A DNA stretch of 35,497 nt from positions 1 to 35,497 of the forward strand of contig JBFZAQ010000203.1 in assembly GCA_041308885.1 (NCBI GenBank). The letters run 5' to 3'. Position 1 is the stretch's first letter; every line of letters begins with the position of its first letter. This stretch comes from Candidatus Omnitrophota bacterium. Lineage in GTDB: Bacteria > Omnitrophota > Gorgyraeia > Gygaellales > Profunditerraquicolaceae. Of the stretch, positions 1,644 to 29,375 are shown piece after piece. A program made the translations under genes and the position numbers. Below the pieces are notes generated by a model. It saw only the letters and a list, made by a program, of their open reading frames with translations. It had not been told where the DNA came from and searched no databases.

Positions 1644-1753
1644 AATGACCAAATTCCAATTTCCAAATCCCAATGAATGACCAATTGCCAATGACCAATT
1701 GGAATTTGGGGTTTGGGATTTCATTGGGGTTTGGAATTTGGTCATTGGGATTT
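1644..1753. repeat. family-A palindromic heptamer element, copy A1
   Basis: An imperfect palindrome of about 110 nt. In register it reads TTCCAAT/TTCCAAA/TCCCAAT/GAATGAC/CAATTGC/CAATGAC/CAATTGG, followed by the inverted arm CATTGGGGTTTGGAATTTGGTCATT. It lies between the divergent DUF3786 and helicase starts. Confidence 0.9.
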
Positions 1754-1797
1754 ACTGACTAACATTCTACCTTTTTATCATAGCTAATGCAACAATT

Positions 1798-3693
1798 TTG
1801 GTTTATACTATGTTTATGATCTACGATCCTTTCCAACAACAATCTATCGACTATATCACCCAGGGCTTTTCGGTTATCGTCTCCGCTCCCACCGGGGCCG
1901 GAAAAACCGTAATCGCCGAACATGTTATTGAAACTTGCCTTCAGAGCAACGTCGGGGCAATTTATACCGCACCGATCAAAGCCCTCTCCAATCAAAAATT
2001 CCGCGACTTCCAAAAGGAATATAGCGACCATATCGGGATCCTTACCGGAGATGTATCCCTGAATGCCACAGCCCCCATCCTGATCATGACCACCGAGATC
2101 TTACGCAATAAGATTCTCGATGAGCCGCAAAGCCTGCAGCGCTATTCCTGGGTCATCTTTGATGAGATCCATTATATTGATAACCCCGAACGCGGCACAG
2201 TTTGGGAAGAATCGCTAATCTTTCTGCCCGAGCACATGAAGCTCTTAGCGCTTTCGGCGACTATCCCGAACATAAAAGAACTGGCGGCCTGGATTGAGTC
2301 CATCCATAAGAAACCGATCAAAACAGTCATTGAGGAAAAACGCCCGGTCCCGCTGCATTTCCTCTTTCAGTGCCAGAATGATATCCTGCGCCACATCCAG
2401 GAATTAAAACGCACCCGCCACGGCCGGCCGAATAAACTAAGCACCCTGATCAATTATCTGCGCCAGAACGAAGGCCTGCCGTGCATCTACTTTGTTTTCG
2501 GGCGCCGGCGGGCCGAAGAACTTGCTATGGACCTCTACGGATTTAACTTTCTCAATCAGAAAGAACGCGAAGAAATCACAGCGCTCTACAATGCCCTCCT
2601 TAAACGCTTTGATTTAACTGCCGATCGCACCGCCCAAGGGCTTTACCCGTTGGTACAGCGAGGGGTAGCCTTCCATCACGCCGGGATGCTGCCTACCCTG
2701 AAAGAAGTAATCGAACGGCTCTTTACCAGCCGGCTGCTTAAGGTGATCTTCACCACGGAAACCTTTGCTTTAGGGATCAATATGCCCAGCCGCTCAGTTA
2801 TCTTCGACGACCTGCGCAAATTTTACGGCCGGTACGTCCGAACGCTAAAAACCCGGGATTTTTATCAGATGGCCGGACGCGCCGGCCGGCGGGGTATCGA
2901 CAGCGAAGGCTTTGTCTACAGCCGGATTAATCCCCACCGGATTAACGTTGAAGAGGTCAAGCGGATCATCTACGGACAACCGGAAGAAGTGCACAGCCAG
3001 CTGAACGCCTCTTACGCTACGATCCTTAATCTTTACGAGCGCTATAAAGACCGGCTTTATCAGGTCTACCCGCGCTCTCTGCACTTTTTTCAATCCAAAA
3101 AACACGAGCAACAGCAAGCCCTAAGACTCCTAGAAGCCAAAGTCAAGATCTTAAAAGAATGGGATTATATTCAGGGAGAAACGTTAACCACTAAAGGGTC
3201 TTTTGCTAAGAGCGTGCACGGATATGAACTGATCCTGGCGGAATTATACCAGGATAATATTCTGGAACAGCTGGATGAGTTTGAACTGGGAATTCTAGCG
3301 GCGGCGATCGTCTTTGAGCCGCGCAAAAACCAGCATCTGTTTAGCCTGACTAAAAGCGCCAAGCGGATCAAACGGGTCTGCGAAGAGATCCATGAGCAGA
3401 TTGAACATAAAGAGCGCAAGAACCGGGTTTTTCCGATCAGTAAATTGCCCTACTTTCATTTAAGCCAATGTATGGAAGCTTGGCTGCGGGGAACAAGTTT
3501 TGATAAGATCTTGCGGGTGACAGATACTGATGAGGGCGAGATAGTCCGCTATTTTCGGATGAGCGTGCAGATCCTGCGGGAAATCAATGAAGCCAAAGTG
3601 GCTTCGCCGATTCTTAAAGAAAAAATCAAAGAAACTATCCGCGTGATTAACCGCGACGTGGTGGATGCGGAAAAACAACTGAGGGAAGGTTAA
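1798..3693 (+). CDS. superfamily-2 DEAD/DEAH-box helicase, Ski2/HelY-like with a DSHCT-like C-terminus
   Basis: Motif I SAPTGAGKT, motif II FDEIH, motif III SAT, HHAGMLP, motif VI QMAGRAGRRG. The C-terminal WLRGTSFDKILRVTDTDEGEIVRYFRM resembles the DSHCT domain. The track start is TTG at 1798; ATG at 1810 or 1816 are alternatives. Confidence 0.85.
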   Translation: MVYTMFMIYDPFQQQSIDYITQGFSVIVSAPTGAGKTVIAEHVIETCLQSNVGAIYTAPIKALSNQKFRDFQKEYSDHIGILTGDVSLNATAPILIMTTEILRNKILDEPQSLQRYSWVIFDEIHYIDNPERGTVWEESLIFLPEHMKLLALSATIPNIKELAAWIESIHKKPIKTVIEEKRPVPLHFLFQCQNDILRHIQELKRTRHGRPNKLSTLINYLRQNEGLPCIYFVFGRRRAEELAMDLYGFNFLNQKEREEITALYNALLKRFDLTADRTAQGLYPLVQRGVAFHHAGMLPTLKEVIERLFTSRLLKVIFTTETFALGINMPSRSVIFDDLRKFYGRYVRTLKTRDFYQMAGRAGRRGIDSEGFVYSRINPHRINVEEVKRIIYGQPEEVHSQLNASYATILNLYERYKDRLYQVYPRSLHFFQSKKHEQQQALRLLEAKVKILKEWDYIQGETLTTKGSFAKSVHGYELILAELYQDNILEQLDEFELGILAAAIVFEPRKNQHLFSLTKSAKRIKRVCEEIHEQIEHKERKNRVFPISKLPYFHLSQCMEAWLRGTSFDKILRVTDTDEGEIVRYFRMSVQILREINEAKVASPILKEKIKETIRVINRDVVDAEKQLREG

Positions 3694-3694
3694 A

Positions 3695-3874
3695 AAGGTT
3701 AACCGAGGTTATTCAAAGTTAAACCAGGTTAACCGATGTTGCAGGTTACAAAAAATGTTATAAAAAGGTTGCTAGATAAACTCTCCTTTATTATTAATGA
3801 ATTTCTTTTAACATCTTTTTTAACCTGCAACCTAGATTAACCTCGGTTAACCTTGAATAACCTGGATTAACCTT
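3695..3874. repeat. long imperfect inverted repeat (arms 3695-3748 and 3821-3874) between convergent genes; likely bidirectional terminator or REP-like element
   Basis: The left arm is AAGGTTAACCGAGGTTATTCAAAGTTAAACCAGGTTAACCGATGTTGCAGGTTA. The reverse complement of the right arm is AAGGTTAATCCAGGTTATTCAAGGTTAACCGAGGTTAATCTAGGTTGCAGGTTA. An AT-rich loop of about 72 nt separates them. The repeat begins 2 nt after the helicase stop and ends 13 nt before the macro-Nudix stop. Confidence 0.85.
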
Positions 3875-3886
3875 CTTAGTCGCGGG

Positions 3887-4834
3887 TTAAAACGGGGTTT
3901 TTCCTTGCCTACAGGCCAGATAATCTTCAATGATCGAGCGGTGGTCAAAAGCAAAATTTACGCCGGCTAGTTGATCAAGCTTAACCACGCGCACACCCTT
4001 AGCATCGTCTCCGGCTAATGGCGTGCCCGCAGCCTTAGCGATAAAAACGGTATTAATAGTATGAAAGCGCGGATCACGCTCCGGAGCCGAATAAGTATGC
4101 ATCTGACGAACATCAATGATGTCCAACCCGGTCTCTTCTTTAGCCTCGCGGATAACTGCGCTTTCTAAACTCTCACCATAATCCACAAATCCGCCGGGCA
4201 AGGCCCAACCAAATGGCGGATTACTGCGTTCAATCAACACGATCCCGCCGTCGAGTTCAATAATAGCATCCACGGTAATATAAGGGCCGAAACCCAACTT
4301 CTCGGTAACATAAGTTAAATAACCGATAACCCCCTTGTTGAAGGCGACCAACGCCTCTTGGCCATTCAGGCAGAAAATAATCTCTTTCAGGCTGCGCGCA
4401 TCCCGGCGCGAATACTTATATACTTCCTGCGCCATTATTTTTGCCGAGGCCAATAAGGGGAATCCCCCGGTACCGCAGCCCAGAGCCGGAAAAACAATAG
4501 ACTTAAGTTGCAAGTCTTGCGCGACATTTAAGGCGCTAGCTGCTGCTTGCCGTATTTTATACTCATCGGTTTTAAAATCAAGGCCCATAGTCACAGCATG
4601 GATCACATATCTTGCCGGCAAACTTCCCGCCCCCGACGCCACCGCCGCGCCGATAGCAATCGGGCCTTTATGCACAGCTTCCTCCTCAATAACCGCGCCG
4701 CCAATTCTTTTGATCGCGCCGGCTACGCCGCCGCCCATAACCAACTTATCATTGGCAGCATTGACAATAGCATCGGCTTTTAATTCCGTAATATCCGCTT
4801 TGACTAGCGTAATCTTAATCCCTTTAATTTCCAT
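3887..4834 (-). CDS. macro domain (ADP-ribose binding/hydrolase) fused to a Nudix hydrolase
   Basis: The N-terminal half has [34 protein letters not shown] (macro/Appr-1-p signature). The C-terminal half has the Nudix box [24 protein letters not shown]. The start overlaps the upstream gene by 11 nt. Confidence 0.85.
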
Positions 4835-6103: not shown

Positions 6104-6143
6104 CTAACAACTCCCCAATCTATAACTTAACTATTCCTCTCGC

Positions 6144-6187
6144 TACTCACTACTCACTACTCACAACTCTTAACTCTTAACTACAAC
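6144..6187. repeat. heptamer tandem tract TACTCAC x3, AACTCTT x2, AACTACA
   Basis: Direct reading in 7-nt register. It runs across the stop codon (6181-6183) of the 216-aa ORF. It is related to the tract at 29343-29375. Confidence 0.85.
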
Positions 6188-6831
6188 TCTTCCTCGATCT
6201 TGCGAATCAACTCCGCCGCTTCTTTGAGTAATCCGGGAGGCAGCAACTTGGCCACTGCCGCCTCGTCTTTGAGCGAACGCAGCGTGCCGATAAAACGCTT
6301 GAGAGTAACCTGCCGCTTCTGTTCTCGGGCCTCATCCGGATCAAGCTCATTACGCTGCCGGATAAGCGCGGTTAAGTCTTTTTTGACTTCACTGGCCTCT
6401 TTACCTTTTTCGAAAACATCAGCCTTTAGCCGCTCGTATTCGCTTTTTTCCAGGCCCTTCTTACTCTTGGCCCGTCTCAAAACGTCCACCGACTCGAAAG
6501 TAGGCACTGACTTGGCGTCGGCCGAATCGGTATACTCCTGCTGTAAATAACCGGGTTCTTCTTTTTCGAGAAAATAGTAAGACCGCAGTAATTTAAGCGC
6601 CGTGGCTTTACGGATGCCTATTTCCTTGGCGGTATAAACGTCAAACTGAGAATATCCCCAGGTCTTATACAACTTATCTTTCCAGGCCGTATACAAGGCC
6701 CGGCCCAACTCGATCCAGGAAGTTTTAAAATCCTTGGCGCTGCGTAAAATCTGATAGCGCAAAGAATTCTGATCCATATCCTGCATCTTCTCTTCGAGAT
6801 TCCTGACACTCTTTGGCTGTGTTTCAGGCAT
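6181..6831 (-). CDS. hypothetical protein with a putative HTH and a charged, coiled-coil-like C-terminus
   Basis: ORF with ATG at 6831. The segment FDVYTAKEIGIRKATALKLLRSY looks like a helix-turn-helix. The C-terminal half is a K/E-rich helix. No family recognised. Confidence 0.6.
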   Translation of the reverse strand: MPETQPKSVRNLEEKMQDMDQNSLRYQILRSAKDFKTSWIELGRALYTAWKDKLYKTWGYSQFDVYTAKEIGIRKATALKLLRSYYFLEKEEPGYLQQEYTDSADAKSVPTFESVDVLRRAKSKKGLEKSEYERLKADVFEKGKEASEVKKDLTALIRQRNELDPDEAREQKRQVTLKRFIGTLRSLKDEAAVAKLLPPGLLKEAAELIRKIEEEL

Positions 6832-6855: not shown

Positions 6856-7446
6856 TTACTTAATTTGCCAATCGTAATTTCCGGTTTGCGCATTCAAAAC
6901 TTCTATCGGCGTTCCGGCTGAGGCATTATCCTGCAGCTTTTTAGTGTACATCTTCTGAACCTCGGCAACAGTAATTCCGTTCTTCTGGGAAATCCCCTGA
7001 TAAATAATCATCCGGTCATCATTCTCCTCATTGACTAACTGCTCAACGGCTGCGCTGGCCGCGATCTTATCACGGATCTCAACTAATCCCAATTTATTTT
7101 CACCCACGACACCCTTTTGTTCCCATTCGTTAAGCGCGGCCAATCGGTCACGGCGGCGAAAGGCGGCCTGTTCGATTAGCGGGCTCAATCCGTCTTCGGC
7201 ATAAGCAATGCCTATGATCCCGCGCAAGAAGCTCTGACTGCCTTTAGCGGCCGGGTTATCCCCACCCGAGACTATCGATTCGATATCGTCAATATCCTTA
7301 GCCACATGCTGATAAATATCCAGGCGCATGGAAATATCCACCTTAATCGGATCTTTGGGCGCTTCCACCCGGACCCGGGCGCAACCGATACTAGGTAATG
7401 TCATGATCAGAATAGCGTATAACGTATAGCGGATAGCAGATTTCAT
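6856..7446 (-). CDS. YnbE-like lipoprotein fused to a YdbL-like (DUF1318) domain
   Basis: The leader ends ...LPSIGC. VRVEAPKDPIKVDISMRLDIYQHVAKDIDDIE resembles E. coli YnbE (...VAAPKEPITINMNVKIEHE...). The C-terminal GVVGENKLGLVE...NEENDDRMIIYQGISQKNGITVAEVQKMY...AGTPIEV...G.WQIK resembles YdbL/DUF1318. GGAG lies 6 nt before the ATG. Confidence 0.65.
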   Translation of the reverse strand: MKSAIRYTLYAILIMTLPSIGCARVRVEAPKDPIKVDISMRLDIYQHVAKDIDDIESIVSGGDNPAAKGSQSFLRGIIGIAYAEDGLSPLIEQAAFRRRDRLAALNEWEQKGVVGENKLGLVEIRDKIAASAAVEQLVNEENDDRMIIYQGISQKNGITVAEVQKMYTKKLQDNASAGTPIEVLNAQTGNYDWQIK

Positions 7447-11083: not shown

Positions 11084-11218
11084 ATGTTTTGTGTAATGTG
11101 TTATGTTTAATGTGTAATGCTGGTGTAATGGTTTAATGTGTAATGGAAAAGAATAAATTCCATTACACATTATTTTGCATTAAACCCACATTACACATTA
11201 CACTTTACACATTACACA
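11084..11218. repeat. imperfect palindrome built from TGTGTAA-type heptamers
   Basis: TGTGTAA/TGTGTTA/TGTTTAA/TGTGTAA from 11090. The central perfect 12-bp stem is AATGTGTAATGG (11135-11146) pairing with CCATTACACATT (11160-11171). The right arm repeats CACATTACAC and overlaps the dCMP deaminase stop codon (11212-11214). Confidence 0.85.
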
Positions 11219-11688
11219 GAACGACCATTTAGTCTTCGAACTTTAATACCCGCTTCCTTCAAAAACTTTGCCGCCAGCTTATCCGGATAACCATCGGAAA
11301 CTACAATCTCTTTGATCCCGGCATTGATCAGCATCTTTGCGCAGATAACGCACGGCTGAATAGTGGCATAGAGAACCGCCCCCCGCACGCTGATACCGTA
11401 AAGAGAAGCTTGAATAAGCGCGTTTTGCTCAGCGTGCAAACCCCGGCATAGTTCGTGTCTTTGTCCGGAGGGTATTTTAAGCTTCTCACGCAGGCAACCG
11501 ATATCCAAACAATGCTCCAACCCGCTGGGGGCGCCGTTGTAGCCGGTGGCCAATATCCGCTTATCCTTGACTAAAATTGCCCCCACTCTCCGGCGCAAAC
11601 AAGTTGCCCGGCGCGAGACTAATTTGGCTACTTCTAAAAAATACTCATCCCAACTGGGCCGGTGAAACGATGTTTTAATTTTTTTCAT
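11212..11688 (-). CDS. dCMP (deoxycytidylate) deaminase, ComEB-like
   Basis: Zinc motifs HAEQNAL and [10 protein letters not shown] moved the start to ATG 11688 ([21 protein letters not shown]). The track start (TTG at 11760) lies in family-B repeat sequence. Confidence 0.85.
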
Positions 11689-11706: not shown

Positions 11707-11936
11707 CTGAAGCGCCGCAGGCGCTGAAGAATTCAACTCGCCGTCATTCTGAGGCCGCAAGGCTTTCTTCGCGCGGGCGGCCGAAGAAACTGACGGCAGC
11801 CTAGATCCCTCGTCGCGCTTCCTGCCTGCCGGCAGGCAGGCGCGCTCCTCGGGATGAGGGAAACGTTAGCGGCGCCTCGGGATGACATAATATCGCTGCA
11901 CTCAGGACGACGCAATATCGCTGCGCAGGATAACAT
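11707..11936. repeat. composite GC-rich repeat block (family-B units plus the perfect 20-bp palindrome CCTGCCTGCCGGCAGGCAGG at 11821-11840)
   Basis: AGCGCCGCAGGCGCT hairpin at 11711-11725. CCGTCATTCTGAGGCCGCAAGG...GGCCGAAGAAACTGACGG at 11741-11797. The palindrome at 11821-11840 is flanked by CGCGCTT/GCGCGCT. It fills the glyA to dCMP-deaminase spacer. Confidence 0.85.
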
Positions 11937-13690: not shown

Positions 13691-13805
13691 GCTACGGTTA
13701 CGTCTTACGGTAACGAAGCCCGTTTCGTTTAACGGTAACGGTTACGGCATTTATTGTTTAGACGATAGACGTAACCAAAAACCGATACGGGCCTCGTTAC
13801 CGTTG
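13691..13805. repeat. palindromic element rich in GGTAACG/CGTTACC
   Basis: ACGGTAACGAAGCCCGTTTCG (13707-13726) matches the reverse complement of CGATACGGGCCTCGTTACCGT (13783-13803) at 19 of 21 positions. Additional TACGGT/GGTAACG/GGTTACG units lie between the arms. Confidence 0.75.
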
Positions 13806-17669: not shown

Positions 17670-18234
17670 CTTCTTTACCGACCAGCATTATTTTGGGTCT
17701 CTTTAATAAATCCAAAATGAATCCGCTTCTTGCTGCCTTTTTCGCTTTGTATTCCTGCCAGGAATAAATTGTGGGGTTTATCTCTCTTTTTAGCTTCTTC
17801 TCCAAAATAGAAATCCTTTCATTCACGCAAGAGCTATCCTGATCACCGATAACCATAAGATCGATATCGCTGGCCGAATTTTCTTTTTTTGAGGCAAACG
17901 AACCATAGATGAAAGCGGTTTTTAAACCCTGAATCGATACCAAAGAATTCCTGAGGCTCGCCTCTACCCCGACCGTCTTGGAAACAATACTTTTTAATTC
18001 ATCAAACAAAGGATGGCTTCGGTTAAGGGAATAATAAAGAAGATTACCGACTCTCCGGGTCTTGAATAAATTATCCTTCTGGAATCTCAATAGTTCCCTG
18101 CGGATATTACCGGCAGAATATCCTAATACGCGCTGAAGCTCCCTTAAGTAATATTCCTGAAGCGCATTAGTAAAGAATAAGGCGAGCAGCCCCTGCCTGA
18201 TTTTCGATTTTGCAATATAAAGGCTATCCAGCAT
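17659..18234 (-). CDS. winged-HTH plus minimal nucleotidyltransferase (MNT) domain protein (putative antitoxin)
   Basis: YGSFASKKENSASDIDLMVIGD is the GS-X9-10-D-X-D minimal NTase signature. The N-terminal YYLRELQRVLGYSAGNIRRELLRF is wHTH-like. Confidence 0.8.
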   Translation of the reverse strand: MLDSLYIAKSKIRQGLLALFFTNALQEYYLRELQRVLGYSAGNIRRELLRFQKDNLFKTRRVGNLLYYSLNRSHPLFDELKSIVSKTVGVEASLRNSLVSIQGLKTAFIYGSFASKKENSASDIDLMVIGDQDSSCVNERISILEKKLKREINPTIYSWQEYKAKKAARSGFILDLLKRPKIMLVGKEDGL

Positions 18235-19437: not shown

Positions 19438-20451
19438 CTAAATCAACTGTACTTTCCTTGACCCCTTGACTACAGTGCCGATAATACCGGACTTTAAGCG
19501 TAAACTGGCTAATTTGCGCACTACCGCCTCAGCCGCGCCAACCCGCACAATAAGCACCATCCCTATCCCCATATTCAAAGTATGATACATCTCGTAATCG
19601 GCAATCGCGCCCTTCTCCTGGATCATGCGAAATATTTCCGGCACCGGCCAAGAACCTTTGCGGATAACCACATCCAGGTTATCCGGCAGGATACGAGCAA
19701 TCTTGTCGTAGAAGGCTCCGCCGGTGATGTGGGAGATTCCTTTAATGGTCGATAGTCGATAGTCTATAGTCGATAGTAAAGATAGAATTGGCTTGACGTA
19801 AATTCTAGTGGGTTTAAGTAATTCGGCGCTGTGATTTTTGAGTTCCCTTTCAGATAAAACCTTCCTCACTAAAGAAAATCCGTTGGAATGCAAGCCATTA
19901 GACTCCAGGCCGATCACGACATCACCGGGTTTGATGCCTGAGCCGTCGATAATCCTATCTTTCTCAACTGCCCCGACGCAAAATCCGGCGACGTCGTATT
20001 CGCCGTCACGATAGATATCCGGCATTTGGGCAGTCTCTCCGCCAATTAAAGCGCAGCCTGATTGCACGCACCCTTCGGTTATCCCGCCCACTACCTGAGA
20101 TAATACTCGCGGGGCGACTTTACTAAAAGCAATATAATCCAGGAAAAACAAAGGAACGGCCCCCACGCACAAAATATCATTAACATTCATGGCTACCGCG
20201 TCAATACCGATAGTATCGTGCTTGTTAGCCAGGGCAGCGATTTTCAACTTAGTCCCCACCCCGTCGGCCGAAGAGACCAGAATCGGATTCTTATAGGCGT
20301 TTTTATTAAAGGCAAAAAAAGATCCGAAACCGCCGATATTCTTCAGTACCTCCGGCCGGAACGACTTCTTGACCACGGATCTTAACCCGCGCTTAAACTG
20401 CTCCATCGCCGCAATATCCACCCCTGATTTTTTATAAGTTATACCGGCCAT
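19438..20451 (-). CDS. purM: phosphoribosylformylglycinamidine cyclo-ligase (AIR synthetase)
   Basis: ITYKKSGVDI..., VSSADGVGTKLKIA, GGETAQMP, HITGGAF. It carries an in-frame heptamer tract (19749-19785). Confidence 0.95.
   Translation of the reverse strand: MAGITYKKSGVDIAAMEQFKRGLRSVVKKSFRPEVLKNIGGFGSFFAFNKNAYKNPILVSSADGVGTKLKIAALANKHDTIGIDAVAMNVNDILCVGAVPLFFLDYIAFSKVAPRVLSQVVGGITEGCVQSGCALIGGETAQMPDIYRDGEYDVAGFCVGAVEKDRIIDGSGIKPGDVVIGLESNGLHSNGFSLVRKVLSERELKNHSAELLKPTRIYVKPILSLLSTIDYRLSTIKGISHITGGAFYDKIARILPDNLDVVIRKGSWPVPEIFRMIQEKGAIADYEMYHTLNMGIGMVLIVRVGAAEAVVRKLASLRLKSGIIGTVVKGSRKVQLI
19749..19785. repeat. intragenic heptamer tract TCGATAG x2, TCTATAG, TCGATAG, TAAAGAT in purM
   Basis: Read in 7-nt register. 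It encodes LSLLSTIDYRLSTIKG just upstream of the conserved HITGG block. Confidence 0.85.
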
Positions 20452-20485
20452 AAAATTATCCTTCTCTTAACTATCCTAACTGGCT

Positions 20486-20595
20486 AAATGACCAATAACC
20501 AAATCCCAAGCCCCAATGAATAACCAAATCCCAAGCCCAATTGGTAATTGGTATTGATGATTCATTGGGATTTGGAAATTGGAATTTGATCATTT
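20486..20595. repeat. family-A element, copy A4
   Basis: AAATGACCAATAACCAAATCCCAAGCCCCAATGAATAACCAAATCCCAAGCCCAATTGG, then the inverted arm TTCATTGGGATTTGGAAATTGGAATTTGATCATTT. It ends 1 nt before the purF stop codon. Confidence 0.9.
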
Positions 20596-20596
20596 A

Positions 20597-22060
20597 CTAC
20601 TGAAGATCCCCCTGTCCGCAACAGCGCGCTTCCAACGCGCACTTGCCTTGTTTCTTCTCCGGGGTAACCGGATATTTACCCGACCAACAAGCCGTGCAAT
20701 AATGCGAGGCCGGATGCTTAAAACAGGCTAACATCCCCTCAAGGCTCAAATACCCCAGCGTATCCACGTCCAGATACTGGCGGATCTTATCCAGCGATTC
20801 ATATTTATTGGCGATCAATTCCGAAGAACGGTTAAAATCAATGCCATAGAAGCAGGGAAATCGATGCGGCGGGCAAGAAATCATCAGATGCACTTCTCTA
20901 ACTCCGGCCTTACGCAAATTGCGCACCCTGATCTGCGAGGTGGTCCCGCGCACGATAGAATCATCCACTACCACAATTCTTTTTCCTTTGAGGACATCGG
21001 GCAACAAATTAAATTTAACCCTGACGCTTAGATCCCGGGTATCCTGAGCCGGCTGAATGAATGTCCTACCTACATAGTGATTGCGGATTATCCCCATCTC
21101 CAGCGGAATTCCCGATGCCGCGGAATACCCCAAGGCCGCGGAAAATCCGGAATCAGGCACCGGCACTACCAAATCTGCCTTGATCGGATGCTCCTTAGCC
21201 AGCTGCTCGCCGAGCCGGCGCCTTACCGTATGCACCGTCTGGCCGAAGACAATGGAATCGGGACGGGAAAAATAAACATGCTCAAAGATACAGGAAGCCC
21301 GGCGGTTATGCGGTCGCAACGCTTTAGGCTTGAGGCTGCGTAAGCCGTCATTAGTGATAATCACGGTTTCTCCCGGCTCTACTTCCCGCACATACCGCGC
21401 CCCGATCAGATCAAAAGCGCAGGTTTCCGAAGCTAAACAATAAGCCTTGCCTAATTTACCTAATGCCAAAGGACGAAAACCCAGCGGGTCGCGCACGCCG
21501 ATCAGCTGGTCGGTAGTCATGAACAACAAAGAATAAGCCCCTTTGATCCGCTTCAAGGCATAGAGTAAGCTCTGTTCAAAATTATAAGTCTTAGCCCGGG
21601 CCATCAGATGAATGATGATCTCGGAATCCGTAGTGGTTTGAAAGATCGATCCGCTGGCCTCAAGCGACTGGCGCAATTCTAAAGAATTCACCAAATTGCC
21701 GTTGTGGGCGATACAAATAGAGCCCTTGGCGTAATCAATCAATAGCGGCTGGGCATTTTTTAAAACGCTTGATCCGGTGGTCGAGTAGCGCACGTGCCCG
21801 ACTGCCTTGTCCCCTTTCATCTTATTTAAAAGGGCTTCATCAAAAACTTCGCTGACTAAACCGGTGGCTTTATGAACAGTCAGAACGCCCTTGTGGTTGG
21901 CCACAATTCCGCAGGCCTCCTGGCCGCGGTGCTGCAACGAATACAACCCCAGATACGTCAGCCAACTGGCTTGAGCATGGTTGCTGATCCCGAATAACCC
22001 GCAATATTCCCGCGGCTGAACACCCGGACTACTTCGCACATAGCGCGCTTTTCTCATCAT
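20597..22060 (-). CDS. purF: amidophosphoribosyltransferase (glutamine-PRPP amidotransferase) with propeptide and Fe-S cysteines
   Basis: ...EYCGLFGIS (Cys nucleophile after a leader of about 19 aa), LQHRGQE, HVRYSTTG, AHNGNL, TTDSE, PRTase loop VVVDDSIVRGTT, and C-terminal CTACWSGKYP. The 5' end overlaps the upstream paralogue by 32 nt. Confidence 0.95.
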   Translation of the reverse strand: MMRKARYVRSSPGVQPREYCGLFGISNHAQASWLTYLGLYSLQHRGQEACGIVANHKGVLTVHKATGLVSEVFDEALLNKMKGDKAVGHVRYSTTGSSVLKNAQPLLIDYAKGSICIAHNGNLVNSLELRQSLEASGSIFQTTTDSEIIIHLMARAKTYNFEQSLLYALKRIKGAYSLLFMTTDQLIGVRDPLGFRPLALGKLGKAYCLASETCAFDLIGARYVREVEPGETVIITNDGLRSLKPKALRPHNRRASCIFEHVYFSRPDSIVFGQTVHTVRRRLGEQLAKEHPIKADLVVPVPDSGFSAALGYSAASGIPLEMGIIRNHYVGRTFIQPAQDTRDLSVRVKFNLLPDVLKGKRIVVVDDSIVRGTTSQIRVRNLRKAGVREVHLMISCPPHRFPCFYGIDFNRSSELIANKYESLDKIRQYLDVDTLGYLSLEGMLACFKHPASHYCTACWSGKYPVTPEKKQGKCALEARCCGQGDLQ

Positions 22061-23468
22061 ATACTCCGCTCTTATCCGGCTCTCTGCCGGTCCAGCAATA
22101 GGTGCATAATTTTTCTCCCGGCAAACCGATTGCCGCGATCATGTCGGAAAGCTTCTGATATCGCAGGGTAGTTACCCCCAGATCCTTAGCGATCCAATCC
22201 ACCATCTTTTTATGCTGCGGGGAATCTTCGTCAAGATAAGGCGAAATATCCGTAGCATCTTTACCCTCAATGGCCCGAATAGCCCGTCGGGCTGCCAACT
22301 CGGCCAAGGTCCGGGTAGAACAATTGAATTTACACGGGTACATGAGCGGCGGACAGGCGATCCGCAAATGGATTTGTTTTGCCCCGCATTCCTTAAGCTT
22401 CTGAATGGTATAGTTCTTAAGCTGGGTCCCCCGGACAATGGAATCATCGCAAAAGACGATCATCTTATCTTTAATAATCTCCGGGACGGGGATCAATTTC
22501 ATCTTGGCGATTAGATCGCGCCGCTCCTGAGAGGCAGGGGTATAACTGCGATCAAATCCGGGAGTATATTTTACCAGGGGCCGGCGAAGCGGCACCCCCG
22601 ATTCCATCGCGTAACCTATCGCGTGGGCGGTACCCGAATCGGGTATCCCGGCAACCATATCCGCCGCGGCAGTATCATTCTTAGCCAACATCGCCCCGCT
22701 GCGCTCCCGGGCGACTTCAACATTAATTCCCTCATACGCGGAAGCCGGGACACCGGTATAGATCCATAAAAAAGAGCAGATCTGGTTAGTCTTATTCTCT
22801 TTGCGCCTTTGCTGAACGCCTTTTCCATCAATGAAGATAATCTCGCCCGGGGCAAGAAATTTCCGGATCTTAAAACCCAGATTATGAAACGCTGCCGACT
22901 CGCTGGCCACCGCCCAATCACCGCTTCTTTCCCCAACCACCAACGAAAAATACCCCAACCTATCCCGGGCGGCATATAGGCCTTCTTGAGTGAGTATCAA
23001 CAAGGAACAAGAACCCTCTATCCGGGAAAATAAATACTCTACCCCCTCAACAATGGACTTCCCCTTCAAGATAAGCTTGGCGGCCAACTCCGTCGGGTTT
23101 ACCCGGCCGTCAGCCATCTCGCTGAAAGACTTTCCGTCTTGATATAATTCTTCGGTCAGCTCCCGGGCGTTATCAATAAAACCGTCGGTAACTATGGCAA
23201 AGGAGCCGAATTTGGAATGCATGCACACCGGCTGCTCGTCGTTAGCGCTGATAACGCCGATCCCTTTATTCCCCGGCAAAGATCTGTAATCGCCGTAGAA
23301 TTTGGATTTAAACTGGCTGCCGCGGATATCATGGATCTTGCGTCTTAACTCGGCGCCCCACACGGCCATCCCGGCAAACTGCGTGCCTAAATGCGAATGA
23401 TAATCCGTGCCGTAATAGACATCTTCACCGCAATCTTTTTTTGCCACCACGCCGAATAATCCGCTCAT
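22029..23468 (-). CDS. PurF-like amidophosphoribosyltransferase paralogue with degenerate glutaminase domain (Ser in place of Cys1)
   Basis: MSGLFGVV aligns with (M)CGxxG. HRGQ is replaced by HLGTQ, the VRY(S/P)T Arg is missing (GVISAND), and HNGN is replaced by TDGF. The PRTase loop IVFCDDSIVRGTQ and the CTYCWTG Fe-S-type cysteines are retained. GGAG lies 7 nt before the ATG. Confidence 0.8.
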   Translation of the reverse strand: MSGLFGVVAKKDCGEDVYYGTDYHSHLGTQFAGMAVWGAELRRKIHDIRGSQFKSKFYGDYRSLPGNKGIGVISANDEQPVCMHSKFGSFAIVTDGFIDNARELTEELYQDGKSFSEMADGRVNPTELAAKLILKGKSIVEGVEYLFSRIEGSCSLLILTQEGLYAARDRLGYFSLVVGERSGDWAVASESAAFHNLGFKIRKFLAPGEIIFIDGKGVQQRRKENKTNQICSFLWIYTGVPASAYEGINVEVARERSGAMLAKNDTAAADMVAGIPDSGTAHAIGYAMESGVPLRRPLVKYTPGFDRSYTPASQERRDLIAKMKLIPVPEIIKDKMIVFCDDSIVRGTQLKNYTIQKLKECGAKQIHLRIACPPLMYPCKFNCSTRTLAELAARRAIRAIEGKDATDISPYLDEDSPQHKKMVDWIAKDLGVTTLRYQKLSDMIAAIGLPGEKLCTYCWTGREPDKSGVYDEKSALCAK

Positions 23469-23481: not shown

Positions 23482-24306
23482 TTATAATAATTCCCGAGCG
23501 TAAGCTACGCCGTTCTTAAAAATTAATGACCCGTCGGGTGCCCACCGGCATTTTTTACCCGTCCACCGGGGATGCTGGTTCGGTTGGATATGCCGCTCGG
23601 GATGAGGCATCAGCCCAAGGATCCTGCCGGTTTCATCGCAGATCCCGGCGATATGCTCAATAGCGCCGTTAGGATTAATGGGGTAAGAACCAGCCTGGCC
23701 ATGCTCATCGCAATACCGGAACACAATCTGCCCATTTTCCTTAAGCCGTTTTAAAACGAGCGCATCTTGAACCACAAACTTCCCTTCCCCGTGCGCCACC
23801 GGCAAATAGACAACTTCCGGCAAATCCTTTACCCACACGCATTTTACTTGCGTCTTGCGTCTTGCCTGCCTGCCGGTCAGGCAGGCGTCTTGCGTCTTCA
23901 AATAAACCCACCGATCCTCGAATTTCCCCGAATCATTGATAATCAGGCTGGCTTCCTGCCGAAGCTCCGGGTTACCCGGCAGTAATCCGCTTTTAACCAA
24001 TACCTGAAAACCATTGCAGATCCCGATGATCAGCTTGCCATCGGCAATAAAGCGTTTAAGCGGGCCCAAAAGCTTGCCCTTAAGCTCATTGGCCAGAATC
24101 TTACCCGCCCCCAGATCATCACCGTAACTAAAACCACCGGGAAATGCCAAAATTTGGAATTCATCCAGCTCGCGCGCTCCGGAAACCAGGGCATTAACAT
24201 GCACCAGATCGGAATCAGCGCCCGCCTGCTCAAAGGCAAACGCCGTTTCTTGGTCGCAGTTAGTCCCCGCGGCGCGCAATACGCAAACTTGAGGTTTTCT
24301 CGCCAT
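23482..24306 (-). CDS. purQ: phosphoribosylformylglycinamidine synthase I (glutaminase subunit)
   Basis: MARKPQVCVLRAAGTNCDQE..., nucleophile elbow GICNGFQ, and C-terminal MPHPER. I moved the start to ATG 24306; the track extension (to 24384) runs into family-B repeat sequence. It carries an in-frame palindromic insert (23847-23898). Confidence 0.9.
   Translation of the reverse strand: MARKPQVCVLRAAGTNCDQETAFAFEQAGADSDLVHVNALVSGARELDEFQILAFPGGFSYGDDLGAGKILANELKGKLLGPLKRFIADGKLIIGICNGFQVLVKSGLLPGNPELRQEASLIINDSGKFEDRWVYLKTQDACLTGRQARRKTQVKCVWVKDLPEVVYLPVAHGEGKFVVQDALVLKRLKENGQIVFRYCDEHGQAGSYPINPNGAIEHIAGICDETGRILGLMPHPERHIQPNQHPRWTGKKCRWAPDGSLIFKNGVAYARELL
23847..23898. repeat. intragenic in-frame element in purQ: CTTGCGT heptamers flanking a GCCTGCCTGCC/GG(T)CAGGCAGGC palindrome
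   Basis: In 7-nt register it reads CTTGCGT CTTGCGT CTTGCCT GCCTGCC GGTCAGG CAGGCGT CTTGCGT. It encodes KTQDACLTGRQARRKTQVK. The core matches the intergenic palindrome at 11821-11840, 15037-15048 and 15653-15664. Confidence 0.85.
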
Positions 24307-25135: not shown

Positions 25136-25250
25136 AAAATTTCCAATGACCAAGTCCCAAATCCCAATGAATGACCAATTACTAAATCCCAATTGAATAT
25201 TGGTCATTGGGATTTCATTGGGATTTGGGGCTTGGAATTTGGTCATTAAA
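25136..25250. repeat. family-A element, copy A5
   Basis: AAAATTTCCAATGACCAAGTCCCAAATCCCAATGAATGACCAATTACTAAATCCCAATTG, then the inverted arm ATTGGTCATTGGGATTTCATTGGGATTTGGGGCTTGGAATTTGGTCATT. It begins 20 nt downstream of the purSL stop. Confidence 0.9.
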
Positions 25251-25270
25251 TTACTATAATTTTTTTCCGC

Positions 25271-28213
25271 TTACCAGCGTAACGGTCTCTGCCAGGCTTC
25301 TTTTAACTGCGCGATATCGGCTTTTACGCACACTTTGCCGTTCAAACCATGGACGGTAAAATATTCCTTATCGGACAGGCAGCCGATTAACCCCAGCGGC
25401 ACGCCGGTTAACGCGCGCTCAAATTCTTTCTGCTTGCTCTTTTCCACTTCCACGATAAATCGCGAATTAGACTCCGAGAACAACAAAACATCATTTCTTA
25501 CGTCCTGCGTCTTGCGTCCTGCGTCTTGCGTCCGGTATGGGATTTCTCCGGCAAACATCTCCATCCCCAGCCCTCCGGCAAACGCCATCTCCGCGGCGGC
25601 CACGGCAATGCCGCCCTCCGAACAATCATGCAGGGAGCTGACCAACCCTAAGGCTGTAGCCCGGTTTAAGGCGGCAAAAATCTTAATCGCCACGCTACAA
25701 TCAACCCGCGGCACGCTGTTGCCCAGCGCCCCAAGCAAAGCATAATACTGCGAACCGCCTAATTCTTCTTTCGTCTCTCCGACGGCATAAATCAGGCCGC
25801 CGGGGCGCTTAGCGTACATGGAAACTGCCTTACGCGCGTCCTCCATCACCGCTATGGCGCTGATCAAGAGCGTCCCCGGGATGGCTAAGGATTTCCCGTG
25901 CTCGGTATATTCATTATATAAACTGTCTTTGCCGGATATAAAAGGCACGCCAAAACCCTTGGCAATATCATAACAGCCATAGGCCGCCCGCACCAAGGAA
26001 CCCAACCGGTCCGGTTTATCCGGATTTCCCCAACAGAAATTATCCAGTATCGCCGCCCGCTCCAGGGAACCGCCTACGGCAATAACCTGCCTCAAGGCCT
26101 CGTCAATACAAGATGCGGCCATCCAATACGGATCTATGCCCCCGAAACGAAAATTTATACCGCAGGAAATAACCAAGCCTTTTACCGATCCAAGTATAGG
26201 CTTAACCACCGCAGCGTCGGAAGGCCCGTCATTGACGATGCCCACTAACGGCTTGATCACCGATTGACCCTGCACTTCATGATCATATTGGCGGATAACC
26301 CACTCTTTGGAACAAATATCATAGCTAGACAACAGCTTCAACAGATACAAGGTCAAATCTTTTTTTAATGGTAATTTTGGCTGTGGATGCCGCTTTTGGG
26401 TAAAGACCGCGATTTTTTTAATATCCGGCAGGCCAGCGTGCAAGAAATCCATATCCAGATCGCCCACCTTGCGACCGGAATAAAATAACTCCAGGCGCTT
26501 GCTCCCGGTAAACTCCCCGATCACTGCGGCCTCAACGTTCTCGCCGGCGAACAAATCCAACAATTCGGCGAGGTTTTCCTTGGGCACGGATAAGATCATC
26601 CGCTCCTGCGACTCGGATATCCAAATTTCGGTATAAGAAAGCCCGCTGTATTTTAAAGGCGCCTTTTCTAGATCAACCCGCACTCCTAAATCCCGGCCCA
26701 TTTCGCCCACGGCGCTGGAGAATCCTCCCGCGCCACAATCAGTAATGGCGTCATATAAATCGCGGTCGCGGGCCTGCAGGATAGCATCCACCATCTTCTT
26801 TTCCTGAATCGGATTGCCGATCTGCACCGCGGAGCTGGAAATAGTTTCGGATTCGTGGGTCAACTCTCCCGACGAGAATGTAGCCCCGTGTATTCCGTCG
26901 CGCCCGGTCCGGCCGCCGACGGCCACGACTAAATCGCCGACCTTGGCGCGCTTAAAAGATTTATCCTTAGGCATGATCCCCACAGTGCCGCAATACACCA
27001 AAGGATTACCCACGAACCGCTCATCAAAAAGTATAGCCCCATTGACCGTGGGTATGCCCATTTTATTTCCGTAATCCCGCACTCCCGACACTACCCCTTT
27101 CATCACCCGCTTAGGATGCAGCGTGCCCTTAGGTAACTTACTAAAGGGATAATCCGGCGGCGCAAAACAAAAGACGTCGGTATTCAAGATCGGCTTAGCC
27201 CCCAAACCCGTGCCTAAGGGATCCCGGATAACCCCGCCTACTCCGGTATTAGCCCCGCCGAATGGCTCCAAGGCCGACGGATGATTATGGGTCTCTACCT
27301 TGAAACAGACATTATTCTCTTTATCGAACTCGATCACCCCGGAATTATCATGGAACACCGAAACGCACCAGGACTTATTCAGATCTTGAGTAACCTTCAT
27401 GATCGTGGATTTTAGAAGATTATCGATTAATCTAGGTTTTAGGTTATAGGTTATAGGTTTTAGCTTACTTAATAACTTTTCCCGATATTCTATTTTTCCG
27501 CGAAAGGTCTTATGCGCGCAATGCTCCGACCAGGTCTGGGCAATAGTTTCCAACTCGCAATCGGTGGGATTGCGCTTTATTTTCTGGAAGTATTTCTTAA
27601 TCATGCGCATTTCCGCTAGATTCAAAAACAACTGCCCAGTCTTACTAATTTCCTGCAGTTTCTTATCCGAGGCACCGATTAAATCTACGGTAATCAATTT
27701 GAATTTAGGCTCGCTTTTTTCTTTTTCCTGTCCCCTGTCCCCTGACCCCTGTCCCCTGACCACATGCTGTATCAATTTATTATACAGCAGCTTCTCCGTA
27801 ATCATCTTAAACTGCGCATCCGTAAGCTTGCCCTCAATTATATATTTCTTCGCCGTCTTAAAAGCAGCAACTCCGTCAATGCCGAGATCGCGAATTCCCT
27901 TAAGCGCTGATTCTTCCACCGGGTCCATGACCCCGGGGTTATAGGCTACCTCCACCACGCGGTCAGCGTTAATTCCGGAAGTTAAAATGGTAGGCCGATT
28001 GATATAGCAGTCTTGAGAAACGGGGTCAACTAACAGCTGGCTGCAGATTGTTGCAACTTGATTTTGGGCAAGCGTTCCGTCTAGAGTATAAACCTGGATG
28101 AACCGGACACCCTTAACCGCCTTTACGCCTAGATCAATAATGTCTTTTTTAACCCCCGCGCCAACCGCGTCAAAAATACCCGGCTTATCGGCAATTTCTA
28201 TTTTCCAAGACAT
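25271..28213 (-). CDS. purL: phosphoribosylformylglycinamidine synthase, PurS-PurS-PurL fusion (PurSL)
   Basis: Two N-terminal PurS-like repeats (IADKPGIFDAVGAGVKKDIIDLG...VRFIQVY and VAYNPGVMDPVEESALKGIRDLG...). The PurL core follows (SEHCAHKTF, VETHNHPS, GNPLVYCGTVG, two AIR-synthase-like halves). It carries three in-frame heptamer tracts. Confidence 0.9.
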   Translation of the reverse strand: MSWKIEIADKPGIFDAVGAGVKKDIIDLGVKAVKGVRFIQVYTLDGTLAQNQVATICSQLLVDPVSQDCYINRPTILTSGINADRVVEVAYNPGVMDPVEESALKGIRDLGIDGVAAFKTAKKYIIEGKLTDAQFKMITEKLLYNKLIQHVVRGQGSGDRGQEKEKSEPKFKLITVDLIGASDKKLQEISKTGQLFLNLAEMRMIKKYFQKIKRNPTDCELETIAQTWSEHCAHKTFRGKIEYREKLLSKLKPITYNLKPRLIDNLLKSTIMKVTQDLNKSWCVSVFHDNSGVIEFDKENNVCFKVETHNHPSALEPFGGANTGVGGVIRDPLGTGLGAKPILNTDVFCFAPPDYPFSKLPKGTLHPKRVMKGVVSGVRDYGNKMGIPTVNGAILFDERFVGNPLVYCGTVGIMPKDKSFKRAKVGDLVVAVGGRTGRDGIHGATFSSGELTHESETISSSAVQIGNPIQEKKMVDAILQARDRDLYDAITDCGAGGFSSAVGEMGRDLGVRVDLEKAPLKYSGLSYTEIWISESQERMILSVPKENLAELLDLFAGENVEAAVIGEFTGSKRLELFYSGRKVGDLDMDFLHAGLPDIKKIAVFTQKRHPQPKLPLKKDLTLYLLKLLSSYDICSKEWVIRQYDHEVQGQSVIKPLVGIVNDGPSDAAVVKPILGSVKGLVISCGINFRFGGIDPYWMAASCIDEALRQVIAVGGSLERAAILDNFCWGNPDKPDRLGSLVRAAYGCYDIAKGFGVPFISGKDSLYNEYTEHGKSLAIPGTLLISAIAVMEDARKAVSMYAKRPGGLIYAVGETKEELGGSQYYALLGALGNSVPRVDCSVAIKIFAALNRATALGLVSSLHDCSEGGIAVAAAEMAFAGGLGMEMFAGEIPYRTQDAGRKTQDVRNDVLLFSESNSRFIVEVEKSKQKEFERALTGVPLGLIGCLSDKEYFTVHGLNGKVCVKADIAQLKEAWQRPLRW
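25497..25533. repeat. intragenic heptamer tract CTTACGT, CCTGCGT, CTTGCGT, CCTGCGT, CTTGCGT in purSL
   Basis: Read in register. It encodes RTQDAGRKTQDV shortly before the conserved LLFSESNSRF block. It uses the same heptamer as the purQ and purD inserts. Confidence 0.85.
27434..27468. repeat. intragenic heptamer tract AGGTTTT, AGGTTAT x2, AGGTTTT, AGCTTAC in purSL
   Basis: Read in register. It encodes (S)KLKPITYNLKPR about 12 residues after the AHKTF motif. Confidence 0.85.
27727..27761. repeat. intragenic heptamer tract CCTGTCC x2, CCTGACC, CCTGTCC, CCTGACC in purSL
   Basis: Read in register. It encodes RGQGSGDRGQ at the boundary between the second PurS-like repeat and the PurL core. Confidence 0.85.
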
Positions 28214-28231
28214 GGAGGCTCCGAGGGAAGT

Positions 28232-29137
28232 TTAATTCTTTGGGTCGCTTGCTGAAGAAACGCTGGGTTTCTTACGCAATAATTGGTCATCGGGATTCAC
28301 CGCGCGGAACATCGGCATATTGGCTTCCGTAGCCACATAGATAACATTCGGGTTTTGATTCAGGGTGTTGATCCACAAATAATGCAGATACTGCTCGGTC
28401 AAACTTTCGGCGATAATCTCCTGGGCGTCCCGGATGCCTTTAGCCTCTACTCGTTTGCGCTCGGCTTCCTGCGTTTCTTTCTGCAAAATAAATTTCATCC
28501 GTTCGGCATCCTGCTCGGCGCGCAGCTTCTGTTCAATGGCTTGGCCGAGAGTCGCGGGGAGCTTCATGCCGCGCAGAAGCACGCTCTCTAAAATAATGCC
28601 CCGTTCGGCTAAAATCGCCTTTAAAGAGCTAAGAATGGCCTGGGCCAGCATTTCCCTTTCCGAAGTATACAAAGCCTTGGCTTCGTTTAAAACCGTGATA
28701 CCCCTGGCCGCCGCGCGGAACTGGGGGATAACGACGATATCTTTATAGTATGGCCCGATAGTCTTATAAATTTGCACTGCCCGGTCAGGATCAATGCGAT
28801 AAAGTATGGAAAGATCAAGGTTGATAGTCAGGCCTTCTTTGGAAGGCACCGGCATTATCTCCATGGTTTCCTGCGTGCGCACCGAGATCTTGGCTACTTT
28901 AGCTAACGGGTTAACCAGATTAAGGCCACTGGAAAGCGGCCGCGGAGAAACTCGCCCGAAGAAATCCACAACTCCGACATATCCGGCCGGGACTACGCGT
29001 GCGGAGCTGAATAATATGCCCGCGGCTAAGCCGATAATCGTGGTCACTAAAATCGGCCGAGCCGATCCGGTCTTAGTCACTTGGATAAATACGATACCGA
29101 TAATGAATCCGAAAGCCAAGATTATCAGCAAACCCAT
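28232..29137 (-). CDS. SPFH/prohibitin-family membrane protein
   Basis: TM segments, then VVPAGYVGVVDFFGRV...NLDLSILYRIDP..., and a coiled-coil EQKLRAEQDAERMKF. ATG 29137 has GGAGG 5 nt upstream. The track start at 29209 is a GTG in another ORF's territory. Confidence 0.85.
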   Translation of the reverse strand: MGLLIILAFGFIIGIVFIQVTKTGSARPILVTTIIGLAAGILFSSARVVPAGYVGVVDFFGRVSPRPLSSGLNLVNPLAKVAKISVRTQETMEIMPVPSKEGLTINLDLSILYRIDPDRAVQIYKTIGPYYKDIVVIPQFRAAARGITVLNEAKALYTSEREMLAQAILSSLKAILAERGIILESVLLRGMKLPATLGQAIEQKLRAEQDAERMKFILQKETQEAERKRVEAKGIRDAQEIIAESLTEQYLHYLWINTLNQNPNVIYVATEANMPMFRAVNPDDQLLRKKPSVSSASDPKN

Positions 29138-29160
29138 ATTATCCTCCTCGGTTAAAAAAA

Positions 29161-29337
29161 TTACCGCCGCGGCCTGCGTGACTTGCCGTATCCTTGAAAC
29201 GCTTTCCACAACGATGCCGACACCAACCCCACCAGCGCGGCCGCTATCAGCGCCCCCGGTTTAATCCGGCGCTTAATAATTACATAGACCAACCCAATCA
29301 GAAAACCAATTATTGTACCCAGAACTATTATAACCAT
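29161..29337 (-). CDS. small (58 aa) two-helix membrane protein, not in ORF track
   Basis: My translation from ATG 29337 to TAA 29161-29163 gives MVIIVLGTIIGFLIGLVYVIIKRRIKPGALIAAALVGLVSASLWKAFQGYGKSRRPRR. This is two hydrophobic stretches separated by KRRIK. It ends 23 nt before the SPFH start. No clear SD. Confidence 0.45.
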   Translation of the reverse strand: MVIIVLGTIIGFLIGLVYVIIKRRIKPGALIAAALVGLVSASLWKAFQGYGKSRRPRR

Positions 29338-29342
29338 TTTTT

Positions 29343-29375
29343 ACTCACAACTCACAACTCATAACTACTAACTAC
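29343..29375. repeat. heptamer tandem tract ACTCACA x2, ACTCATA, ACTACTA, ACTACAG
   Basis: Read in register. It overlaps the purB stop codon (29372-29374) and resembles the tract at 6144-6187. Confidence 0.85.

Follow-up and report, generated by a model that had tools for sequence, protein, structure and literature searches.

We analyzed a stretch of 35,497 nt from Candidatus Omnitrophota bacterium (assembly GCA_041308885.1, contig JBFZAQ010000203.1; "the window" below means this whole stretch), in which short tandem arrays of 7-nt units occur both between genes and in frame inside genes of a purine cluster. On the basis of Pfam matches and translations, the pur genes of the window are purE, purD, purM, purF, a second purF-like amidotransferase, purQ, a PurS-fused purL and purB. 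They are accompanied by nrdR, a dCMP deaminase gene, glyA, rpiB, a gene fusing Sua5 to a low-molecular-weight phosphotyrosine phosphatase (LMW-PTP), phoU, pstBACS and a LOG-family gene. Nearly all identified genes lie on the minus strand, and Rfam and tRNA scans of the window returned no matches. The nearest PurL relatives in genome and metagenome collections are all from Omnitrophota metagenome-assembled genomes (MAGs), with 59 to 74% identity. This agrees with the initial annotation, made from the letters alone, which found that the gene content did not obviously look cyanobacterial. We found no contigs of the same species in these collections (top PurL identity, 74%), and an exact look-up of the window's proteins among the collected contigs gave no match.

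The following arrays lie inside genes:

7412 to 7441, minus strand: ATAGCGG ×4.3 (82% matches), within the first 12 codons of a DUF1318 gene (6856 to 7446)
15952 to 16042, minus strand: purD loop array of the A[AG]GACGC family, with left units at 16021 to 16042 and right units at 15952 to 15964
19748 to 19785, minus strand: purM loop array, CTATCGA ×4, giving the peptide LSTIDYRLSTI (Tandem Repeats Finder, TRF, reports forward-strand GTCGATA ×4.3)
23847 to 23898, minus strand: purQ loop array, made of AAGACGC ×2, a 21-nt palindrome that we call P (23865 to 23885) and AAGACGC ×2.4
25496 to 25533, minus strand: purL site c, ACGCAAG/ACGCAGG ×5.3 (forward-strand unit TCTTGCG), encoding RTQDAGRKTQDV
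27433 to 27468, minus strand: purL site b, AACCTAW ×5 (forward-strand unit TAGGTTA)
27727 to 27761, minus strand: purL site a, GGWCAGG ×4.6 (forward-strand unit CCTGWCC), in the linker after the PurS domain

Period-7 excess in the window and its relatives

TRF returned 36 rows on the window, 15 of them with period 7 and five with period 14. In 100 dinucleotide-preserving shuffles of the window, the corresponding means were 0.63 (maximum 3) and 0.18, and the excess of period-7 arrays is ~20- to 40-fold. An alignment-free scan, in which exact 8-nt self-matches are counted per lag, gave 39 matches at lag 7 against a shuffle mean of 0.79 (z = 33), 41 at lag 14 (z = 37), 18 at lag 21 (z = 14) and 11 at lag 28; there were none at lags 5, 6 and 8. 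A 50-kb control from Escherichia coli K-12 that includes purL and glyA, put through the identical pipeline, yielded only one chance-level period-7 row. The initial annotation had named an excess over dinucleotide-shuffled sequence as the check on its reading, and these counts bear it out; every tract that it listed is also present, to within 1 to 2 nt. Its broader claim that most repeats resolve into heptamers holds for ~14 of the 26 distinct TRF loci, including nearly every high scorer, but not for 3691 to 3878 (10-nt units) and 13707 to 13803 (~9-nt units).

As a comparison sample, we took 2.46 Mb of sequence in 160 related loci, which come from MAG and metagenome assemblies in the public domain and are labelled L001 and so on, with the window as WIN. 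Period 7 was the commonest TRF period in these relatives, with 247 rows against ~62 in shuffles at a score of at least 30. At a score of at least 40, there were 110 arrays of period 7, 1 of period 6, 26 of period 8 and 12 of period 9, against 0, 0, 0 and 2 in shuffles. Among exact repeats only, period 7 is represented by 22 arrays of three to four copies and 29 of at least four copies, and shuffles had none. Array density is patchy, with 1.8 per 100 kb in the distant clade and 5.8 per 100 kb in the nearer one. The window is an extreme case, with eight arrays at a score of at least 40 in 35.5 kb (~22 per 100 kb). Units are diverse (97 canonical units in 120 arrays). Of 148 arrays, 98 lie in open reading frames (ORFs), yet intergenic density is about six times that in ORFs. 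Arrays range from 18 to 60 nt, with a median of 31 nt and a mode of four to five units in coding and intergenic DNA alike.

Chance or faulty assembly can hardly be entertained as an explanation. Shuffles never came near the observed counts and the E. coli control is clean. Conserved genes carry arrays of 18 to 60 nt in frame, and orthologous sites have them again in loci from many different MAG and metagenome assemblies; since the arrays are shorter than reads, in frame and recurrent among the 160 loci, misassembly does not account for them.

We tried and rejected two candidate accounts of array growth and size. Growth by doubling of 14-nt blocks does not agree with the 82 imperfect arrays, in which identity at lag 14 is no higher than at lag 7 (40 against 41), and an abab pattern is present in a few arrays only. 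Nor can the mode of four to five units be put down to a reading-frame constraint (one native unit and three additional ones), because intergenic arrays show the identical mode. Coding arrays have no orientation bias: 65 of 98 remain free of stop codons when reverse-complemented, compared with 69% expected.

Array sites in pur genes and between genes

Arrays inside genes are concentrated at a few fixed sites. Of the 98 in-ORF arrays, 59 are in purL, 22 in purQ and nine in purM, genes that make up 29% of the sequence, and the purD loop holds three of the remaining eight; these numbers go back to only ~7 inherited sites. When 161 PurL sequences are aligned, period-7 runs are confined to four loop regions along 980 residues; PurQ, PurM and PurD have one array site each. 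The array residues of the window are 152 to 163, 249 to 261 and 894 to 906 in purL, 163 to 180 in purQ and 224 to 236 in purM. Relative to solved structures, the purQ array is an insertion (FGAM, formylglycinamidine ribonucleotide, synthase) and the purM array adds 5 amino acids (PurM 2z01). The purD loop between HAGT and NGGRV has 8 amino acids in 53 of 69 relatives, and the array of the window is split there by a 56-nt nested insert (15965 to 16020) that holds TCCCTCGCT twice. Arrays are absent from the pur sites of ~50 more distant Omnitrophota, in which the loops are short.

One and the same site carries different units in different lineages, typically in four to five copies. At the purQ site, these units include AAGTCAC, AGGCCGC, AGTCGTC, ACCAGAC, CGAAAGA, CAACGAC, CGGTCTA and CGAGTAT. 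The initial annotation had raised the question of whether relatives share the tracts at orthologous sites: sister MAGs do carry arrays in common, but other lineages have other units at the same site. In many near relatives, inserts of equal length lack periodicity, and we take these to be decayed arrays.

The purL of L059 (MAG JAUYCX010000067, 10440 to 10520) changes frame exactly at its site-a array, which is of the ACAGACC type. The shift amounts to one extra unit, and deleting one 7-nt unit would restore the frame. Either the allele is real, produced by slippage or marking a pseudogene, or the assembly is in error here.

The concentration of arrays in pur genes might reflect a selected function, with the arrays serving as 7-nt binding sites in mRNA or single-stranded DNA for proteins of the OB-fold or cold-shock type, or as tags of 7-amino acid period on PurL, PurQ, PurM and PurD. 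Units would then co-evolve with a genome-specific trans-acting factor. The 90 of 98 in-ORF arrays in purL, purQ and purM (with three more in purD), the use of one unit in several pur genes of a genome and of different units between genomes, and the near perfection of many arrays over great evolutionary depth would all be expected. Cold-shock proteins are known to bind heptamer repeats, one protein per unit (PMC4679880). We nevertheless find a selected function rather improbable, given the array-free pur genes of the ~50 more distant Omnitrophota and the decay to non-periodic inserts in many near relatives. Furthermore, the five purL, purQ and purM sites of the window differ among themselves, with four units between them, and the window has no antisense partner arrays complementary to its coding arrays. 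The count of 90 also overstates the number of independent events because it is drawn from only 6 inherited sites.

Arrays at different sites of one genome resemble each other. We compared pairs of arrays more than 400 nt apart within genomes with pairs at non-orthologous sites of GC-matched genomes, each within-genome comparison spanning at most 35 kb (23 to 35 kb per genome). Identical units were found in 8 of 186 within-genome pairs and in 1 of 1981 between-genome pairs (odds ratio 89, P = 2 × 10−8). With one mismatch allowed, the proportions were 18.8 and 2.4% (P = 1 × 10−17). The purL site-a and purM arrays of L084 are one 29-nt sequence, including the order of variant units. AACGACC recurs in purQ, purM and purD of L001, GGTCTAC in purL and purQ of L017, and A[AG]GACGC arrays in purL site c, purQ and purD of the window. 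The earlier proposal that something seeds tracts across the genome is consistent with these unit families.

Because units are shared within genomes, the arrays are not independent local events. Purely local polymerase slippage with an intrinsic 7-nt step, in which each array arises on its own and nothing passes between sites, is accordingly an improbable explanation. It would account for the narrow preference (chiefly period 7 and, to a small extent, period 8), for the one frameshift exactly at an array in L059, and for the final partial unit, which often blends into the conserved flank. Slippage is also the published account of heptanucleotide excess (Mrazek 2007, as relayed in PMC4679880 and PMC4692102). 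The within-genome sharing (odds ratio 89), the array duplicated with its variant order, the replacement of loops at equal length, and a length mode of four to five units with no monotonic decay all argue against it.

Between genes, the window contains the following arrays and hairpins:

1644 to 1753: family-A hairpin, arms 1649 to 1698 and 1699 to 1748, of degenerate AANNNCC heptamers; RNA fold −40.9 kcal/mol, z = −3.7
6139 to 6191: array of CTCACTA ×4.4 and AACTCTT ×2.6 (TRF), overlapping the stop codon of ORF 6181 to 6831, upstream of a dCTP-deaminase-like gene
11086 to 11222: hairpin with TGTGTAA/TTACACA array arms; fold −62.9 kcal/mol, z = −10.6
11821 to 11840: palindrome P, CCTGCCTGCCGGCAGGCAGG, at the apex of a longer GC-rich hairpin; z = −4.0
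14978 to 15081: family-A hairpin with P (15029 to 15048) at its apex, between purE and the Sua5/LMW-PTP gene; z = −4.5
15585 to 15664: family-A arm, then P (15649 to 15664)
15686 to 15799: hairpin of A/T-rich short-period units including TTTGTCA ×2.7, abutting the purD stop codon; z = −5.1
20485 to 20596: family-A hairpin abutting the purF stop codon; z = −7.2
25138 to 25247: family-A hairpin, 24 nt 3' of the purL stop codon; z = −5.9
29343 to 29375: ACTCACA-type array (TRF), overlapping the purB stop codon

Intergenic arrays stand alone (6139 to 6191, 29343 to 29375) or in inverted pairs that form hairpins of ~100 nt, mostly between co-directional genes and starting 0 to 25 nt after the upstream stop codon. 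The exception is 1644 to 1753, which sits between divergent DUF3786 and Ski2-like helicase genes. All seven intergenic hairpins tested fold far better than their shuffles (z from −3.7 to −10.6), and inverted array pairs are found in the distant clade too (for example, in L126, L145, L045 and L160). The hairpin at 11086 to 11222 overlaps the dCMP deaminase stop codon, and 9 nt separate its end from the start of nrdR. It has a TGTGTAA array at 11090 to 11145 and the complement of that array at 11187 to 11218.

Family A has ~6 copies in the window. Compared with a miniature inverted-repeat transposable element (MITE), which has terminal inverted repeats and a target-site duplication, it is an inverted repeat over its full length, with termini TAAATGACC, and no clear target-site duplication was seen. 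TRF reports period 7 at 1649 to 1673 and at 1699 to 1753 (60% matches in the latter) and period 25 at 25145 to 25198. The initial annotation had read the arms over 1654 to 1702 in a heptamer register. This is only partly right: the arms consist of degenerate AANNNCC heptamers, but a 4-nt hiccup (AATG) gives a super-period of 25 nt.

Two further hairpins are built from units of other lengths. The one at 3691 to 3878, between the convergent helicase and Macro-NUDIX genes, has arms of 76 nt that are 83% complementary and consist of 10-nt units, AGGTTAACCG/AACCTNGATT; it is array-built but not heptameric. The hairpin at 13707 to 13803, between rpiB and the Sua5 gene, has ~9-nt units of the ACGGTAACG type.

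Palindrome P, CCTGCC(TGCC)..GGCAGG(CAGG), is GC-rich and 20 to 21 nt long. It occurs at four places in the window (11821 to 11840, 15029 to 15048, 15649 to 15664 and 23865 to 23885), compared with zero in 100 shuffles. Across the 161 sequences, 30 contain P (42 matches), the distant clade included. Intergenic copies cap longer hairpins, as at 15029 to 15048 on the tip of a family-A hairpin. Copies in genes are exactly 21 nt long, and reading frame and array phase are therefore kept. P is nested inside arrays in the purQ of the window, purM of L001 (P at 17950 to 17966), purL site c of L049 (12688 to 12704), purL site b of L087 (1745 to 1761) and of L122 (2967 to 2983), and in L037 at 8170. The purD arrays of the window and of L032 are also split, by inserts other than P. 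At 23847 to 23898, where the initial annotation saw a CYTGCGT tract, the CTTGCGT units are present, but the palindrome that breaks them had been overlooked. The hot-spot pur loops, the turnover of units between lineages and the split purD array were likewise missed.

A dedicated element or enzyme might write heptamer cassettes of ~30 nt into preferred targets, whether as a transposase, an HUH-type protein, or by RNA- or DNA-templated synthesis. Such an agent would act on the arrays, P and the family-A hairpins, or would have left them behind. An array length of ~31 nt that is equal in coding and intergenic DNA, loop replacement at equal length, the copying of whole arrays between genes and the repeated use of the same codon positions all speak for such an element, as do the constant nesting of P after two units and its conservation in 30 of 161 sequences over deep Omnitrophota lineages. 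However, no transposase, integrase or reverse transcriptase turned up among the 20 window proteins scanned with Pfam, and the arrays have neither terminal inverted repeats nor target-site duplications. The 97 canonical units in 120 arrays include dozens that are unrelated, and a single template is therefore unlikely. The sites are also few and old, with 90 of 98 in-ORF arrays in three genes. On balance, we think a dedicated element unlikely.

Other genes of the window show the following arrangements. purF and its second GATase_7 paralogue (20597 to 23468) are overlapping, tandem amidophosphoribosyltransferase-like genes. Neither contains heptamer arrays, despite array-bearing neighbours on either side. 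Also within the purine cluster, with purD to one side and an SPFH gene to the other, are overlapping HEPN and nucleotidyltransferase (MNT-type) genes (17199 to 18234), which look like a toxin-antitoxin module. Fusion proteins are encoded at 3887 to 4834 (Macro-NUDIX), at 13890 to 14948 (Sua5/YrdC with LMW-PTP) and at 25271 to 28213 (PurS on the N-terminus of PurL). The gene at 1798 to 3693 encodes a DEAD/DEAH helicase with a C-terminal DSHCT (NUC185) domain, a Ski2/Mtr4-type architecture that we take to be typical of eukaryotes and archaea.

Slippage, copying and selection as a candidate mechanism

Our preferred explanation combines slippage in 7-nt steps, short-range copying or conversion between arrays, and selection, and we hold it with about as much confidence as doubt. 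Strand misalignment in 7-nt steps would both create arrays of ~4 to 5 units (~30 nt) and keep the units of an array alike. Arrays would also be copied or converted between nearby existing array sites of the same genome, giving rise to genome-specific unit families. Selection would spare arrays in two places: intergenic spacers and a few tolerant surface loops of PurL, PurQ, PurM and PurD. In spacers, inverted duplication would produce the ~100-nt hairpins that start at stop codons. In loops, arrays would be stop-free, would change length in multiples of 21 nt and would be read in all three frames as peptides of 7-amino acid period. The conserved 20- to 21-nt palindrome P and other small inserts would land at array centres and hairpin tips. 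The L059 purL frameshift, exactly at the site-a array and by one unit too many, speaks for slippage. The enrichment, the hot spots, the turnover of units between lineages, their sharing within genomes and the nesting of P are shown by the data; slippage and copying, like the lack of a dedicated function, we infer.

Several observations weigh against this combination. Slippage by a single unit frameshifts essential genes, and the stepwise birth of in-frame arrays is therefore hard to explain. Intergenic arrays share the mode of four to five units. At purL sites 0 and a, the arrays match the length of the non-periodic loops of relatives, with sequence replaced rather than added. Homogenization must be weak, since the window carries many different units. 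In all six cases P follows exactly two units, which hints at a more specific process. Copy-number polymorphism was not observable, as the collections contain no same-species strains with differing arrays; in L112 and L113, whose PurL are ~95% identical, synteny breaks before the arrays. Every within-genome comparison is also confined to the span of at most 35 kb given above. The preference for 7, the ~30-nt length, the equal-length loop replacement and the central position of P all remain unexplained by slippage, copying and selection.

A directed, trans-acting process would go further. It would write or convert ~30-nt arrays into the fixed loops of PurL, PurQ, PurM and PurD, using the genome's own unit and targeting P to the centre. 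We consider this a long shot. If true, it would represent a new kind of repeat system of very small size, templated or mobile, or else a coordinated tag on mRNAs or proteins, and it might account for the origin of the short tandemly repeated repetitive (STRR) sequences of cyanobacteria. We know of no established mechanism for these heptanucleotide repeats since their first description.

Omnitrophota offer a comparative handle on such repeats, as the same codon positions carry units that turn over between lineages and match within a genome. Sites that are empty, decayed or invaded by the palindrome can all be compared, making the birth, renewal, copying and decay of arrays measurable. Arrays of 7 nt, which shift the frame with each unit gained or lost, are tolerated here inside essential genes. 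Anyone annotating pur genes in Omnitrophota MAGs should be prepared for insertions that derive from arrays and for an occasional frameshift.

Comparison with known repeat systems

The STRR1 to STRR3 families have the unit consensus CCCCAGT, TTGGTCA and CAACAGT, and were reportedly first described in heterocystous cyanobacteria by Mazel et al. in 1990. Like STRRs, the Omnitrophota repeats are tandem heptanucleotides in short arrays, with families dispersed in the genome and enriched between genes. Furthermore, AATGACC, a cyclic reverse complement of the STRR2 unit TTGGTCA, recurs in the degenerate family-A arrays, and TTGGTCA itself was counted 17 times against ~4 expected. They differ in their Omnitrophota host, in that most units are unrelated and lineage-specific, and in that about two thirds of sampled arrays lie in ORFs. 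No exact tandem repeats of CCCCAGT, TTGGTCA, CAACAGT, GGGGATT, GGGAATC or TAACTGA were found in the window. Among the canonical units, the 2.5 Mb of relatives contain a single TAACTGA doublet and no STRR1 to STRR3 doublets. The initial annotation had drawn the STRR analogy from single occurrences of ATTGGGG and TTGGTCA. Dispersed tandem heptamers and shared families uphold the analogy, but its basis in those two motifs does not stand, as the canonical units are never tandem. By unit and host, the system is STRR-like rather than a member of STRR.

An excess of heptanucleotide repeats has been documented in many bacterial phyla, with polymerase slippage as the proposed origin (Mrazek 2007, through PMC4679880 and PMC4692102), so that an instance outside the cyanobacteria is unsurprising in itself. 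The suggestion of an independent or unreported instance stands insofar as no paper in the literature available to us combines Omnitrophota with heptanucleotide repeats, but an excess of heptanucleotides across phyla was already known. As that work is summarized in the citing papers, the likeness extends to an excess of period 7 over other periods of 5 to 11 nt, a patchy phylogeny and the proposal of slippage. The Omnitrophota arrays have the property used there to define such repeats, a tandem unit of 5 to 11 nt that is over-represented relative to random sequence. In the same summarized account, simple sequence repeats within genes mostly have unit lengths that are multiples of 3, whereas here essential genes carry 7-nt arrays in frame at conserved hot spots, and there is kinship between the arrays of different sites.

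TAACTGA repeats occur in Beggiatoaceae, cyanobacteria and Bacteroidetes, and can be translated as LSVISYQ peptides (PMC4679880), while GGGAATC/GGGGAYT repeats occur in Xanthomonas and Nostoc (PMC4692102). The likeness to these repeats lies in arrays of two to six or more units that are mostly intergenic, sometimes form inverted pairs and are occasionally translated. In L027 (16907 to 16940), the purM array unit CTATCAG encodes LSAISYQ and is one base off the reverse complement of TAACTGA. The difference is that one unit dominates per genome there; here there are many units, none common across lineages.

The small dispersed repeats (SDRs) of Nostoc, attributed to Elhai et al. in 2008, are said to be dispersed hairpin elements of 21 to 27 nt, nested in heptamer repeats or other small elements. 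By this description P is similar, being 20 to 21 nt long and nesting in array centres and hairpin tips. It differs in its conservation over a phylum-level sample and in its in-frame 21-nt copies inside enzymes. Family A and P also resemble repetitive extragenic palindromes (REPs), which are dispersed palindromes after stop codons. Among the 20 proteins scanned with Pfam, from 35 kb of the genome, there was no gene for a REP-associated tyrosine transposase (RAYT). Rickettsia palindromic elements (RPEs) share with P and the arrays an in-frame position in protein-coding genes, but are 100 to 150 bp long and not tandem heptamers. Set against these systems, the in-frame arrays at hot spots, the matching of units within genomes and the nested palindrome appear to be new elements.

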